Below, one piece after another: positions 17,829 through 25,258 of a stretch of DNA of 32,000 nt. Under the pieces are notes generated by a model. The model did no database searches, was not told the DNA's origin, and saw only the letters and a program-made list of their open reading frames with translations. The first letter of the stretch is position 1, and each line of letters begins with the position of its first letter. Both the position numbers and the translations under genes were made by a program. The DNA comes from an uncultured Clostridia bacterium (GTDB lineage: Bacteria; Bacillota; Clostridia; TANB77; CAG-508): assembly GCA_947628835.1 (NCBI GenBank), contig CANRBL010000002.1:32959-64958 (forward strand), given 5' to 3'.

Positions 17829-17865
17829 TGCCTTCCCTCTTTTCAACTATTTTTTTTACATTTGT

Positions 17866-17894
17866 ATTATACTAAAATCAGAATTAATATGCAA
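17866..17894 (-). promoter_or_regulatory. Dedicated gyrA promoter
   Basis: The minus strand reads TTGCAT-17 nt-TATAAT (-35 at 17889-17894, -10 at 17866-17871). Confidence 0.6.
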
Positions 17895-17910
17895 GAAAAT
17901 TTATGAAAAT

Positions 17911-18468
17911 TTAATTTTTTCTGTCATCTGCTACAATATATTCATCTATTTGACAATTTTTTATTCTAATTACTTCTTCTGGCTCAGTTGGTAATCCGTT
18001 AAAATACCAATTAGCACTTCTTAAGAAAAAGCCATGTGATACTATAAGAATTGTTTTCGTACTATCTTCATATTTTTTTATTATTCTATCTAAACAATCA
18101 AAAACCTTTTTTGTATATGTTTTACAATCTTCGCCTTCTTTTACTGGCACATTTTTTGTATAATATCTTATTTCATTAAAAATTGGTTGTTCATTTGGCT
18201 GACCTTCATAAATTCCCAAATTTCTTTCTATAACTTGTTCATCAATTATTATATCTAAATTATGATATTCATTAATTATTTCTGCTGTTTTTATTGCACG
18301 TTTTAATGGTGAAGATATTATAATGTCTATATTAATATCTTTTAATTTTTCTTTCAATTCTTCTGCTTGCTTTATTCCTTCTTCATTTAATTCTATATCT
18401 GTTAAACCTGCTGCTTTTTTTTCTTTATTCCAATTTGTTTTTCCATGTCGTACTAATAATAATTTCAT
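17911..18468 (-). CDS. Histidine phosphatase (phosphoglycerate mutase-like) family protein
   Basis: 185 aa with LLVRHGKTNWN (RHG motif), SSPLKRAIKTAE and IVSHGFFLR. Confidence 0.85.
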   Translation of the reverse strand: MKLLLVRHGKTNWNKEKKAAGLTDIELNEEGIKQAEELKEKLKDINIDIIISSPLKRAIKTAEIINEYHNLDIIIDEQVIERNLGIYEGQPNEQPIFNEIRYYTKNVPVKEGEDCKTYTKKVFDCLDRIIKKYEDSTKTILIVSHGFFLRSANWYFNGLPTEPEEVIRIKNCQIDEYIVADDRKN

Positions 18469-18503
18469 TTTTTTATTTTCCCTTCTTACTTTTTTGTAAT
18501 ATT

Positions 18504-18764
18504 TTATTTTATGTTTTTATTTTTTATATAATTTTCAGTAAATTCATTTTCTAAAATATCCATAACTATTGTATCATAATATTTTCCATTTATAAATTTA
18601 TTTTCACGAATTTTTCCCATTTCTTTAAATCCACATTTTTTATAACATTTTAAAGCCCTTTCATTAAAACTCATTACATTCAATTTTATATTATGCAAAT
18701 TCATATAATTAAATCCATAATCTAATAATAATCTTATAGCTTCTGTTCCATATTTTATGGTTGT
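18504..18764 (-). pseudogene. 5'-truncated GNAT (RimJ/RimL-type) N-acetyltransferase remnant
   Basis: The frame is open from 18764. It encodes KYGTEAIRLLLDYGFNYMNLHNIKLNVMSFNERALKCYKKCGFKEMGKIRENKFINGKYYDTIVMDIL. That is only the motif-A to C-terminal part of a GNAT domain. The N-terminal 70-90 aa and any start or SD are missing. Confidence 0.7.
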
Positions 18765-18832
18765 TCATTAAATTTATTTTTATTATACTATTTCAACCAT
18801 ACTAAATATAAAAAATTGTCATAAAAAAATTT

Positions 18833-19633
18833 TTATAATTTTTCGGCTAATTGCAGTGCTTCTTCACTAATATTAAAATTCTTTCCATTATTTTTTATTA
18901 ATGTATGTAAATTTTCAATTTTTCTTGCTTTAGCTATTGTTTCTTCCAAAGGCATTAATTCTTTCAATTCCTTTTTTATTTTATTATATTCTTTTTCCAT
19001 TCCGTCAAAATCTCTATTATTATAGTATTCATTCCAATTATTCATATATTTACCCAAAAATTCTAAACTTTCCATTTGATTTGAAAAAGTATTCTCTATA
19101 TTTTTTTCTACATTACTAATAATAACATCTTTTCCTTTTTTTATTAATTTTGATATACTATTATCTATAACACCTGCCTTTGTTACTTTATTTAATGTAA
19201 AATCTATCAATTCTGATACATTGTCTAAAATTCCACCACTTTTTATTACATTTTGAACTTGCGAAATATTTTCAAAATTACCTGTTAAAATTCCTAATGC
19301 ATCTTTTCCCATATCAATGGCAGAATTTATCGATTTATTTATACCTTCTGATATACCATATTTTAATAAATTATCCTTTAAATTTATTATTTGATTTTCT
19401 ACTAAATCTGGAAGTAATAATCTTATACCAATATCTATACCATTATTTATTGCATTTCCTAGTGCACTATCTAAAAAATTTCTTTGTTTTTCTTCTGTTA
19501 CCAAATTATTTGTTATTTCATTATTATTGTTTATTTCTATATTATTTTCATTTATATTTTCTAAATTACTATTTACTTCTTTTCCTAATTCCATATTTTT
19601 TATTTTCCTTTCTATCAAATTAATTTTAGGCAA
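18833..19633 (-). CDS. Hypothetical N/I/K-rich protein, no recognisable family
   Basis: 266-aa ORF from TTG 19633, with an alternative ATG at 19594. No TM helix or motif is recognisable. It follows the pure A/T tract. Confidence 0.5.
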   Translation of the reverse strand: MPKINLIERKIKNMELGKEVNSNLENINENNIEINNNNEITNNLVTEEKQRNFLDSALGNAINNGIDIGIRLLLPDLVENQIINLKDNLLKYGISEGINKSINSAIDMGKDALGILTGNFENISQVQNVIKSGGILDNVSELIDFTLNKVTKAGVIDNSISKLIKKGKDVIISNVEKNIENTFSNQMESLEFLGKYMNNWNEYYNNRDFDGMEKEYNKIKKELKELMPLEETIAKARKIENLHTLIKNNGKNFNISEEALQLAEKL

Positions 19634-19873
19634 TTAACCTTAATTGAAAACTATATTATTTTAATATATTAAAATATATTTTTTATTAATTATTTTTTCA
19701 TTATATTTAATTAATATTATTTAATTTATATTTTTTTATTTATATTTTTTTATTTATATTTTTTATAAATTTATTAATATATATTTTTTTATTAATATAT
19801 TTATAATTTTTTATTATATATTTTATTAATAATACATTTAATATTTTATTATTAATATTTTTTTATATTTTAT
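19634..19873. repeat. About 240 bp of almost pure A/T DNA with 14-bp tandem repeats
   Basis: Only a handful of G/C bases occur in this stretch. TTTATATTTTTTTA is repeated in tandem at 19725-19738 and 19739-19752, with a 13-nt third copy at 19753-19765. ATTAATATAT recurs at 19772-19781 and 19791-19800. Confidence 0.8.
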
Positions 19874-23964: not shown

Positions 23965-24017
23965 TCCTTCCTATTTTTTACATGAAATTTACTTATTGAA
24001 TTTATAAACTGCAATGA

Positions 24018-24587
24018 TTATTTTTTATTTAAATATTTTTTTGAATTAAAAAATGAATAAAAAATTTCTTTAATTTCTTCTTTTTCTAAAATGTTATTTA
24101 CCATATTTCCACATCTCGAAAGACATTCTTTTATTTTAAAAAATCTTTCATTTAGTTCTTCTATAATAACTTCTTCTGAACTAATATTTTCAGATATAAT
24201 GTCTTTGTTAGAAATTATAATATAAAAATTTTTTGAAGATGAATTTGTTTCTGAATTAATATTATTTATATATTTTATATAATCTTCTGCTATTTCTTGT
24301 AAAAAATTTTCCTCTTTATTTTTTAAATTTTCTTTTATATTGGAAATATTTTTAGATAAATCTTTTTTATTACTTTGAATTAAAATTTGAATATCAAAAT
24401 TACATGTTTTTAAAAAAACTTTATATGAATTTAAAATTGCTTGTTTTTCTAAATCTGATTTTAAATTAAAATTAATTGGTAAAACTTGTATTATTTTTAT
24501 ATAATTTTTATTTTTTAATTTTATTATTCCATTATTAAATATTTTATCTATTGGAATCCATTCTTGTATAGAGATTTCTTTTTGTAT
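24018..24587 (-). CDS. Free-standing VirB4 N-terminal domain protein of set 2
   Basis: Not in the ORF track because it has no ATG, GTG or TTG start. I verified codon by codon that 190 codons are open from ATA 24587-24585 to TAA 24020-24018. A perfect AGGAGG lies at 24595-24600, 7 nt upstream of the ATA. The product IQKEISIQEWIPIDKIFNNGIIKLKNKNYIKIIQVLPINFNLKSDLEKQAILNSYKVFLKTCNFDIQILIQS... matches the VirB4 N-domain pattern. Confidence 0.65.
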   Translation of the reverse strand: MQKEISIQEWIPIDKIFNNGIIKLKNKNYIKIIQVLPINFNLKSDLEKQAILNSYKVFLKTCNFDIQILIQSNKKDLSKNISNIKENLKNKEENFLQEIAEDYIKYINNINSETNSSSKNFYIIISNKDIISENISSEEVIIEELNERFFKIKECLSRCGNMVNNILEKEEIKEIFYSFFNSKKYLNKK

Positions 24588-24616
24588 ATTATTTCCTCCT
24601 TTTTAATTTTGATATT

Positions 24617-24645
24617 ATTTTACATTCATATAGGATAATTGTCAA
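24617..24645 (-). promoter_or_regulatory. Promoter of the set 2 virB4 operon
   Basis: The minus strand reads TTGACA-17 nt-TAAAAT (-35 at 24640-24645, -10 at 24617-24622). Confidence 0.55.
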
Positions 24646-24801
24646 GAAAAATCTTTTGACATTATTCGACATTTTGTAATTTTACGAGTCCTTATGAAAT
24701 TTTGATTTAAAATATATTAACATAGTATTTCGTTTTTATTTAAAATTTTTAAATTTTTTGAATATAATTTCGAATTTTGTCTATAATAAGATTGTAAGGT
24801 T

Positions 24802-25076
24802 GATAATAGTTGAGCCAAGAGTATTAATAGATTATATTTTTTATAGTTTATTAATATTCGGGCAAAGATGTATAATAGTGTATAAAATATATTATTATAT
24901 GTCGGCGATAAGAGTATATTTTATGTATGCAAGCTATATTATCTTACAAAATATGGTTAAATTATATGCAATGTATTCGAGCTAAGATTATTTTTGTATC
25001 TAATATTTAGTGGTTAATAATAGTCCCTTTGGGATGAATTTAGTTACTTTTGGTGTATTAATAGTCGAGCGAATGA
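24802..25076 (+). repeat. Array of six GC islands (consensus TCGAGC-AAGA) embedded in TAATAG-type A/T spacers
   Basis: The six islands are: TGAGCCAAGA 24811-24820; TCGGGCAAAGA 24858-24868; TCGGCGATAAGA 24902-24913; TCGAGCTAAGA 24977-24987; TCCCTTTGGGA 25024-25034; TCGAGCGAATGA 25065-25076. Spacings are 47, 44, 75, 47 and 41 bp. Most islands are preceded by (T)AATA(G/T) and followed by GTAT/TGTA. No credible ORF is present. Confidence 0.6.
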
Positions 25077-25182
25077 TTAATATATGTGGTGTATGGCTTA
25101 TTTATATAGCAATATATATTAGGTTAGACCATTATGTATATTAGTTTTAGTAGAGATTATTATTGGCTTTATGAAACCAATT

Positions 25183-25208
25183 AGCAGGTAAGATTTTTCT
25201 TACCTGCT
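25183..25208. terminator. Perfect 10-bp hairpin downstream of gyrB
   Basis: AGCAGGTAAG-attttt-CTTACCTGCT. The plus-strand side is followed by TTTCTGGTTGTATTTT. The minus-strand side, downstream of gyrB, is followed by the less T-rich AATTGGTTTC. Confidence 0.6.
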
Positions 25209-25258
25209 TTCTGGTTGTATTTTAAGATAAAAAGTAACATTAAATTTATATAATAAAG

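Follow-up and report, generated by a model that had tools for sequence, protein, structure and literature searches.

The window analysed here is a 32,000-nucleotide stretch of DNA from an uncultured Clostridia bacterium (GTDB order TANB77, family CAG-508; GenBank assembly GCA_947628835.1, contig CANRBL010000002.1), and this work concerns the 7.4 kb that separate its gyrB and gyrA genes. All the genes of interest in the gyrB-gyrA neighbourhood lie on the minus strand. Read from the gyrB side, the interval contains a non-coding stretch with GC islands, two VirB4 genes with a YhcG-type nuclease gene between them, a gene for a CpaE/TadZ-like ATPase (the ParA-like gene below), a tract of nearly pure A/T, a gene for an all-helical protein, a remnant of a GNAT gene, and a histidine phosphatase gene. 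The original prediction had listed these features between the end of gyrB at 25259 and the start of gyrA at 17828, and all of them are present where it placed them. It had also taken the whole 7.4 kb for accessory DNA inserted between two genes that are normally contiguous. That description holds for the nuclease cassette and for the GNAT and phosphatase segment, about 2.1 kb in total, but not for the remaining ~5 kb, which form a core shared with the relatives of this bacterium.

Whole-genome searches were carried out in 30 relatives, and the loci were then fetched and mapped gene by gene. A concatenated query of five proteins, which had stricter filters, was used solely for the gyrB-gyrA spacing. 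The relatives are coded from G001 upwards and the fetched contigs or loci carry the letter L, while G000 is the genome of the window and f1 is its family. The group is known from uncultured Clostridia metagenome-assembled genomes, including that of Clostridium sp. CAG:575, and its sources are human, rabbit, chicken, ruminant, and mouse guts.

At least 22 genomes of the genus have gyrB and gyrA on one contig, and the two genes are 4.5-32 kb apart and never adjacent in them. The VirB4 ATPase gene is found between the two, for example in G018, G015, and G004, where the spacing is 4.5-4.9 kb. The order in the genus is recF, gyrB, ~0.6 kb of non-coding DNA, the VirB4 N-domain gene (VirB4N), the VirB4 ATPase gene (VirB4C), the ParA-like gene, the helical-protein gene, a spacer, and gyrA. 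In the seven relatives whose gyrB and gyrA lie closest together, the last spacer measures ~70-140 nt. Both VirB4 genes and the helical-protein gene were present in 17 of the 17 fetched intervals, and the ParA-like gene in most of them.

The arrangement extends beyond the genus. In ten loci from other genera of f1, gyrB is followed by the RNA gene described below and then by VirB4N, VirB4C, and the helical-protein gene; gyrA falls within the fetched stretch at nine of the ten, and the spacing is 3.7-6.2 kb in the eight that were measured. The VirB4 ATPase gene also lies between gyrB and gyrA in another family, f4 (G021, G025). A third family, f5 (G022, G030, G026), has the VirB4 gene 4-7 kb upstream of gyrA, with gyrB 50-72 kb away or on another contig. 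From the RNA gene through the two VirB4 genes, the CpaE-like gene, and the helical-protein gene to the gyrA promoter, ~5 kb is common, in the same order, to the genus, its sister genera, and other families of the order. The relatives thus do share the gene content of the core between gyrB and gyrA, though without an intact GNAT gene. The patchy presence with empty sites that marks an integrative and conjugative element was not seen, as the core is at the site wherever the locus is assembled in the relatives examined. The identity of VirB4C falls in step with that of gyrA, from 72-79% in the genus to 37-52% in other families for VirB4C, and from 82-90% in the genus to 64-73% between families of the order for gyrA. 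For gyrB, the identity to relatives in the genus is 82-89%. Among the papers searched, none links VirB4 to the gyrB-gyrA spacer of Clostridia.

The two VirB4 genes had been described as a split virB4. VirB4N and VirB4C are separate genes in all relatives, where they abut or are parted by a short AT-rich spacer, and each has its own ribosome-binding site. The two-gene VirB4, TrsD-like plus TrsE-like, is the natural state and not a split gene, and the nuclease gene occupies the space separating two genes, not the inside of one. The TrsD-like protein (189 aa) aligns with positions 12-200 of the 201 positions of NF041427, and it also aligns with the N-termini of VirB4 models in NCBIfam. The ATPase scores 71.4 bits with the Pfam family P-loop_TraG, for which the cut-off is 25.8. 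Its match to the CD1110-type model NF045971 is confined to model positions 173-730 because the N-domain is encoded by a separate gene. A second VirB4 gene, 28% identical, is located at 2510-4477, within positions 1-9000 of the window, where a PrgI-like gene and three VirB2/TrbC-like pilin genes are also found. Of the 31 genomes searched, nearly all, including G000, have matches to this second gene.

The starts of both VirB4 genes are unusual. No ATG, GTG, or TTG precedes the conserved N-terminus of the ATPase, here and usually in the genus, and the start is likely an ATA at 22863 or 22857, past a GGAGG. The TrsD-like gene likewise has none of these three codons ahead of its conserved N-terminus and likely starts at an ATA at 24587-24585, 7 nt past an AGGAGG. 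The ATPase genes of the genus have a conserved GGAGGAAT(A/T)AAAATA in the start region (including the junctions of L003, L026, L029, and L035). Together, these start regions suggest that non-canonical initiation may be routine in this ultra-AT lineage. Genetic code 4 altered no main frame and was rejected, and translation table 11 was retained. At the two start regions (24585-24587 and 22855-22863), an ATA or ATT placed 4-10 nt past the GGAGG is kept in the genus; other families have ATG.

The CpaE/TadZ-like ATPase consists of a receiver-like N-domain and a ParA/MinD domain with the P-loop GIARSGKS. Its gene has a TTG start that overlaps the VirB4 stop codon (TTGA), and it is found at the same position throughout the order, yet it diverges rapidly. 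A candidate promoter of the VirB4 operon is the best site in a promoter scan. Such scans are uninformative in DNA this rich in AT, with 84 sites found against 84.3 expected from shuffles, and the promoter claims made here rest on conservation. All promoters named here are predicted ones.

The next gene had been called an orphan. It has 2362 homologs in a metagenome protein collection, all unnamed, and its position is conserved, with 46-60% identity in the genus and 24-35% in other families at the same place. The protein has no match in Pfam, in PHROG, or among PDB sequences, and a profile search of the PDB returned chance matches only. The AlphaFold model is all-helical and of low confidence (pLDDT 55.7).

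Between this gene and the ParA-like gene lies the A/T tract. The same junction in f1 holds 0.24-4.1 kb of DNA free of open reading frames (ORFs) at 9-15% GC, and the tract of the window is the shortest; in sister species the length is 0.5-4.1 kb. This ORF-free DNA could be the product of gene decay or of low-complexity expansion. The loci L026, L028, L029, L030, and L032-L035 have 1.0-4.1 kb there, with no open frame above ~110 codons. In families f3-f5, a T2SSE (CpaF/VirB11-like) gene and a T2SSF (TadB/C-like) gene separate the ParA-like gene from the helical-protein gene, and a tblastn search with the proteins of these families found no residual similarity to them in the f1 loci. Judging solely from its position, the A/T tract may be what was left after the loss of the T2SSE and T2SSF genes. 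Among the CpaE/TadZ, CpaF, and TadB/C components that define a Tad/Flp pilus system, the CpaE-like gene is the only one at this locus.

The non-coding stretch next to gyrB had been read as an array of GC-island repeats. Covariation and the distribution of G-U pairs identify it as a gene for a structured RNA of ~430 nt on the plus strand. The segment 24742-25172 has 72-82% nucleotide identity in all relatives of the genus, far above the expectation from the adjacent protein genes. RNAalifold folds the alignment of 24 genomes into 138 pairs, 62 of which show compensatory changes. Pairing is retained in 97.7% of the alignment cells, compared with 34-46% when the partners are slid by 1-3 columns, and the observed covariation was reached by none of 500 shuffles. 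When the strands are compared, 98.4% of the cells pair on the plus strand and 72% on the minus strand. The cells with a G-U combination number 799 and those with A-C number 7, and the plus strand is therefore the transcribed one. Five hairpin arms and a long helix that closes the structure make up the fold. The arms are joined by single-stranded linkers resembling (U)CGAGCnAAGA, and these linkers are the GC islands.

The RNA gene has its own conserved flanks. The -35 and -10 elements of its promoter are kept in the 24-genome alignment as TTTTTTGAATAT...CATAAT, and the helix of the terminator shared with gyrB (helix 12) has compensatory changes in 10 of its 12 pairs. Covarying helices, strand-specific G-U pairs, and a putative promoter and terminator of its own are the features generally expected of a structured RNA gene, and this region shows all of them. 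Rfam 15 gave no match at the gathering score in the window, and chance-level matches only in 24650-25300 at E values up to 5. RNase P and 6S RNA were considered and rejected as identities, since RNase P type A is encoded on contig 27 and 6S RNA on contig 1. No tRNA was found in the window. With a covariance model built from the 3' domain, exactly one copy per genome was found in 42 of the 52 family genomes, covering 10 of 13 genera. The only other family with matches is f5, where the model gave five weak and ambiguous ones (E ~1e-5); that in G026 has the expected place and orientation, that in G186 is on the wrong strand, and three are unlinked to the module.

Against this conserved background, three genes of the window (those of the nuclease, the GNAT remnant, and the phosphatase) are absent at these positions in every relative examined. 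The first is the YhcG/DUF1016 nuclease gene. The distance from the VirB4N stop codon to the ATPase ribosome-binding site is at most ~20 nt in relatives; here it is 1136 bp. The inserted DNA brings a ribosome-binding site of its own and is oriented like the operon, and it leaves the genes on either side intact. The product belongs to the PD-(D/E)XK nucleases and scores 142.8 bits with DUF1016_N and 187.1 bits with YhcG_C (Pfam cut-offs ~33). PADLOC assigns it to PDC-S02 (E 2.6e-130), and the D...E-x-K motif is readable as IDLL...IELK. The gene is single-copy in the genome, and the cassette has no nucleotide homology at any relative's locus. The protein has thousands of close homologs and is 75-79% identical to Lachnospiraceae proteins. 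This exceeds the 64-73% seen for gyrA between families of its own order and indicates horizontal transfer of the gene. The nearest homologs (78-88%) are encoded beside a PHP-domain gene, a serine recombinase gene, or a GmrSD-like gene. On the antisense (plus) strand inside the YhcG gene, an 8-bp hairpin rich in GC, with a T-run behind it, is located at 23643-23661, one of only four terminator-like sites in the interval.

Small genes have entered the interval in other species as well. PDDEXK_2 or YhgA-like genes stand at other junctions in G084, G039, and probably G031, a 35%-identical YhcG gene lies between the helical-protein gene and gyrA in G112, and a Bro-N gene is carried in the interval of G002. 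XRE-type regulator genes, recognised from their translations, occur at junctions in several species. A diversity-generating retroelement, recognised with Pfam, is found between the helical-protein gene and gyrA in G100 (L032 10931-14715, in gyrB-to-gyrA orientation). It comprises bAvd, a reverse transcriptase, and a 595-aa pilin-like target protein whose N-terminus carries a prepilin methylation motif and whose C-terminus is of the FGE-sulfatase/lectin type. ORFs of G108 (L033) and G055 (L029) resemble this retroelement by translation. For solitary nuclease genes, the evidence points to the VirB4N/VirB4C junction as a preferred landing site. In G006 (L013, 4555-5489), an Rpn/PDDEXK_2 gene in two frames is located at the identical VirB4N/VirB4C junction.

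The second addition lies upstream of gyrA. The original prediction recognised the GNAT gene as a remnant truncated at its 5' end and placed a breakpoint near 18765, and both points are borne out. The remnant corresponds to residues 107-188 of the intact 188-aa GNAT protein of G034, with 89% identity, and represents the 3' 44% of the gene. The homology stops at ~18753-18765, inside motif A (KGYGTEA becoming ..KYGTEA), which puts the breakpoint within ~10 nt of 18765. The N-terminal half is missing, and the GNAT fold is accordingly incomplete. The genome has no intact copy of this GNAT gene, and 34 of 60 relatives have one. A donor locus for the fragment was sought but none could be named, as the neighbours of the intact gene differ in every relative examined. 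The adjacent histidine phosphatase is intact, and its closest relative, 79% identical, is found in an unrelated context in G002. The genome of the window also has a truncated second histidine phosphatase on contig C15 (14959-15210), a 97-aa frame with 52% amino acid identity over residues 1-84.

The insertion ends 16 nt upstream of the -35 hexamer of the gyrA promoter. This promoter had been proposed from the sequence, where it can be read directly, and the block cTTGCAwA...TTTTAGTATAATACAAATGTA...AAAGAGG is kept in seven of the seven genus relatives compared. The promoter block is therefore older than the GNAT/phosphatase insertion, and in relatives with a short spacer it comes straight after the helical-protein gene. 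At the other end, the junction segment holds TAGTATAATAAAAAT, which matches 14 of 15 positions of the -10 region of gyrA, TAGTATAATACAAAT (17864-17878). A local alignment of the junction segment to 17847-17910 beats 97.4% of shuffles (p ~0.03), and on this weak evidence TAGTATAATAAAAAT may be a duplication that arose with the insertion. As a direct repeat flanking the insert, the match was set aside as too weak to use.

Table 1. Positions of the genes, signals, and segments in and around the gyrB-gyrA interval of the window
Feature	Position	Strand	Basis or remark
dnaA	29799-31154	-	
dnaN	28359-29474	-	
recF	27253-28332	-	
gyrB (upstream boundary of interval)	25259-27241	-	Pfam DNA_gyraseB, Toprim, HATPase_c
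Non-coding stretch with GC islands	24603-25258		
Terminator hairpin common to gyrB (-) and RNA gene (+)	25183-25208	both	11-bp stem, then T-rich on +
Structured RNA gene	24794-25215	+	ends inferred from promoter and terminator
RNA gene promoter TTGAAT-18-TATAAT	24758-24787	+	scan and conservation
Candidate VirB4-operon promoter TTGACA-17-TAAAAT	24617-24645	-	best scan site, 11/12
VirB4 N-domain gene (TrsD-like)	24018-24602	-	NCBIfam NF041427 (TrsD/TraD), end-to-end alignment
Inserted YhcG cassette	22882-24017	-	coding sequence 22927-23964
VirB4 ATPase gene (TrsE-like)	21016-22881	-	Pfam P-loop_TraG, AAA_10; Walker A GTSGAGKS
CpaE/TadZ-like ATPase gene	19874-21019	-	Pfam CbiA 29.7 bits, AAA_31 and ParA matches
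Near-pure A/T spacer	19634-19873		240 bp, 2.5% GC
Conserved all-helical protein gene ("orphan")	18833-19594	-	
Junction segment, "orphan" stop to GNAT breakpoint	18765-18832		holds TAGTATAATAAAAAT at 18776-18790
GNAT remnant, 5'-truncated	18504-18764	-	no start codon at frame opening
Histidine phosphatase gene (His_Phos_1), intact	17911-18468	-	Pfam E 1.9e-43
gyrA promoter TTGCAT (17894-17889)-17-TATAAT (17871-17866)	17866-17894	-	
gyrA (downstream boundary)	frame 15390-17846, ATG at 17828	-	Pfam DNA_topoisoIV and six DNA_gyraseA_C repeats

Based on these observations, we consider it very probable that the interval is of old, inherited origin and has recently gained two small pieces. The gyrB-gyrA spacer would be an ancient part of the chromosome, passed on vertically within an order of AT-rich, small-genome, uncultured gut Clostridia. 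A stand-alone RNA of ~430 nt would be transcribed from its own promoter toward gyrB and would end at the hairpin that it has in common with gyrB. A relaxase-free operon derived from type IV secretion would run in the opposite direction and encode the two-gene VirB4, the CpaE/TadZ-like positioning ATPase, and the helical protein. Since gyrA would no longer be co-transcribed with gyrB, it would need its own promoter. The YhcG/PDC-S02 gene would have entered by horizontal acquisition at the spacer between the TrsD-like stop codon and the ATPase ribosome-binding site, and transcription of the operon could read through it, as it has the orientation of the operon. The nuclease would then be a candidate single-gene phage-defence system expressed by read-through. 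A fragment of ~0.9 kb, made of the 3' part of the GNAT gene and the intact phosphatase gene, would have been inserted after the helical-protein gene and ahead of the gyrA promoter. The operon itself may still drive a secretion or pilus machine. The data establish the conservation, the synteny, the fold and strand of the RNA, the limits of the insertions, and the horizontal origin of the YhcG gene, while the activity of the operon, the read-through expression and phage defence of YhcG, the origin of the A/T tract, and the role of the RNA are matters of interpretation.

Several observations weigh against this explanation. The TrsD-like protein scores 27.5 bits with NF041427, for which the curated cut-off is 200, and the ATPase scores 288 bits with NF045971 against a cut-off of 325. 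The loss of the T2SSE and T2SSF genes, the non-canonical start codons in f1, and the 12% GC and low complexity of the CpaE/ParA-like gene are all signs of erosion of the module. The RNA gene is absent upstream of VirB4N in some members of the family that have the module, and it is located at unrelated sites in two. The empty sites of the two additions are inferred from other species, as no genome of the same species without YhcG or without the GNAT/phosphatase segment was found. Also, the contig L019, which represents the same species in another sample, lacks 17 bp (AGAAGAGCTAATTTCAG) corresponding to window positions 22313-22329, between direct AGAAGAGC repeats. This deletion is a frameshift in the VirB4 ATPase gene, and with the contig at 3.7x coverage it may be a strain variant or an assembly error.

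As the RNA is missing or located elsewhere in some members, a functional tie between the RNA and the VirB4 operon is not supported. We consider it improbable that the RNA is a working partner of a relaxase-free VirB4/CpaE-like machine, whether as a scaffold, a regulator, or a transported substrate. Were it so, the five (U)CGAGCnAAGA linkers would be protein-binding sites, and it would be clear why the two transcription units have retained back-to-back promoters in most of one family of gut Clostridia.

One alternative is that an ancient conjugative element once inserted here and that the module is its dead relic, made of decaying pseudogenes that have no function. Besides the lost T2SSE and T2SSF genes and the kilobases of ORF-free, AT-rich DNA in sister species, this alternative would account for the fast divergence of the ParA-like gene, for the tolerance of foreign genes inside the operon, and for the split or frameshifted copies in G006, G155, G113, and L019. 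However, the VirB4 frames are kept open: the ATPase frame of ~600-630 codons is open in most genomes examined, and the N-domain frame is open at every locus found. The ratio of nonsynonymous to synonymous substitution rates (dN/dS) is well under 1, with 0.10-0.32 for VirB4C, 0.16-0.74 for VirB4N, and 0.24-0.54 for the helical-protein gene. The module has also retained its Walker A motif, its gene junctions, and its ribosome-binding sites, and the helical partner protein has its large set of homologs. We regard a relic as unlikely.

Under a reading in line with the original prediction, all 7.4 kb would be accessory DNA that arrived fairly recently between the normally adjacent gyrB and gyrA, as a mobile island or as what is left of an integrative element. 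Genes of the type IV secretion kind, GC contents down to 2.5-12%, a truncated gene, and a nuclease gene typical of mobile elements (PMC4316617) would all fit such an island. Base composition is misleading in this case. The genome has 25.9% GC and the inserted genes 25%, while the ParA-like gene has 12% and VirB4N 15%, within the lowest 0.1% of 1-kb windows; a GC scan, which had been suggested as a check, does single out an outlier, but the outlier is the shared module and the insertions are typical of the genome. It is thus the conserved parts that are ultra-AT and the new parts that are average. Searches with Pfam and NCBIfam, applied to every ORF of 60 aa or longer between gyrB and gyrA, detected neither a relaxase nor a coupling protein nor an integrase or recombinase, and no flanking repeats were found in the interval. 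The constant order and site of the core across the genus, sister genera, and other families, a divergence that scales with gyrA, and the purifying selection on VirB4C speak against recent arrival, and we see very little chance that the interval is an island.

A third alternative concerns the GC islands, which could form a DNA element such as iterons, a partition site for the ParA-like protein, or operators. The five similar motifs are spaced ~42-98 bp apart and adjoin a ParA-like operon, which would fit such an element. On the other hand, the motifs are the single-stranded linkers between the arms of the RNA, set among helices whose double changes and near-complete pairing are those of a folded transcript, and the excess of G-U over A-C and the conserved plus-strand promoter and terminator on either side are not those of a DNA site. 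A DNA element is highly improbable.

Finally, a contig that is chimeric at 17.9, 18.77, or 25.2 kb is conceivable, since the assembly is of the metagenome type, has 82 contigs, and shows 2.7% contamination, but misassembly is excluded, as five contigs from other samples (L019-L023, taken from three ENA assemblies and two Logan runs) match the window at 99.66-100% identity, are jointly colinear with positions 15764-25954 across every suspect junction, and encode an identical phosphatase protein.

The module can be compared with several known systems. In the closest published parallel, Patescibacteria have a chromosomal, relaxase-free type IV secretion system that is derived from MPF-FATA, goes back to conjugation systems of monoderms, and is often located near dnaA (Quinonero-Coronel et al. 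2025, PMC12102498). The locus described here resembles it in that a VirB4 of the monoderm (Firmicutes-type) conjugation lineage is chromosomal, near the origin block, without a relaxase beside it, and present throughout the lineage. By analogy, this lineage-wide conservation suggests that the module may have been co-opted for a non-conjugative role. It differs in its Clostridia host, in its location exactly between gyrB and gyrA, in the combination of a two-gene VirB4 with a CpaE/TadZ-like ATPase (plus T2SSE and T2SSF in sister families), and in having a large structured RNA gene as a constant neighbour in one family.

The two VirB4 genes are also comparable with the two-gene VirB4 of Gram-positive plasmids, represented by NF041427 and NF045971. 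The end-to-end alignment with TrsD/TraD, the restriction of the ATPase match to part of its model, and the abutting genes in relatives are shared features. Unlike the plasmid genes, those of the window score under the model cut-offs, are inherited vertically, and have no plasmid or integrative-element context, relaxase, or coupling protein. The position of the nuclease gene has a parallel in the pLbaR RAGE of Rickettsia felis, where a DUF1016 gene is located between traU and traW (PMC4316617). In both cases, a solitary, horizontally acquired YhcG-type nuclease gene lies between two genes of a type IV secretion system and has a phylogeny unlike that of its neighbours, but the recipient here is a domesticated chromosomal module instead of a mobile element. 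For PDC-S02, an activity in defence is predicted by the database.

Large structured RNAs such as OLE and ROOL have been a repeated source of new biology. The RNA of this locus is similar to OLE, ROOL, GOLLD, and the raiA motif in being several hundred nucleotides long, in its many covarying helices, in its restriction to one lineage, and in having its own promoter and terminator. In contrast to these RNAs, it has no Rfam match, its closing helix, five arms, and (U)CGAGCnAAGA linkers form a different architecture, and its gene is single-copy and has a fixed place in the chromosome beside gyrB.

The locus corrects a misreading, as extreme AT content and type IV secretion genes near the origin are here the marks of a domesticated module and not of a mobile island. 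This module splits the canonical gyrB-gyrA pair across a whole order of common, uncultured gut Clostridia, and within it lies the gene of a large RNA that has strong covariation and belongs to no catalogued family. The locus is also a landing site for small defence-type genes, which enter at exact junctions, as with the YhcG nuclease of the window and the Rpn-like nucleases and the retroelement of sister species. These species offer a natural series of filled and empty sites in which the movement of genes without transposases or integrases can be studied.

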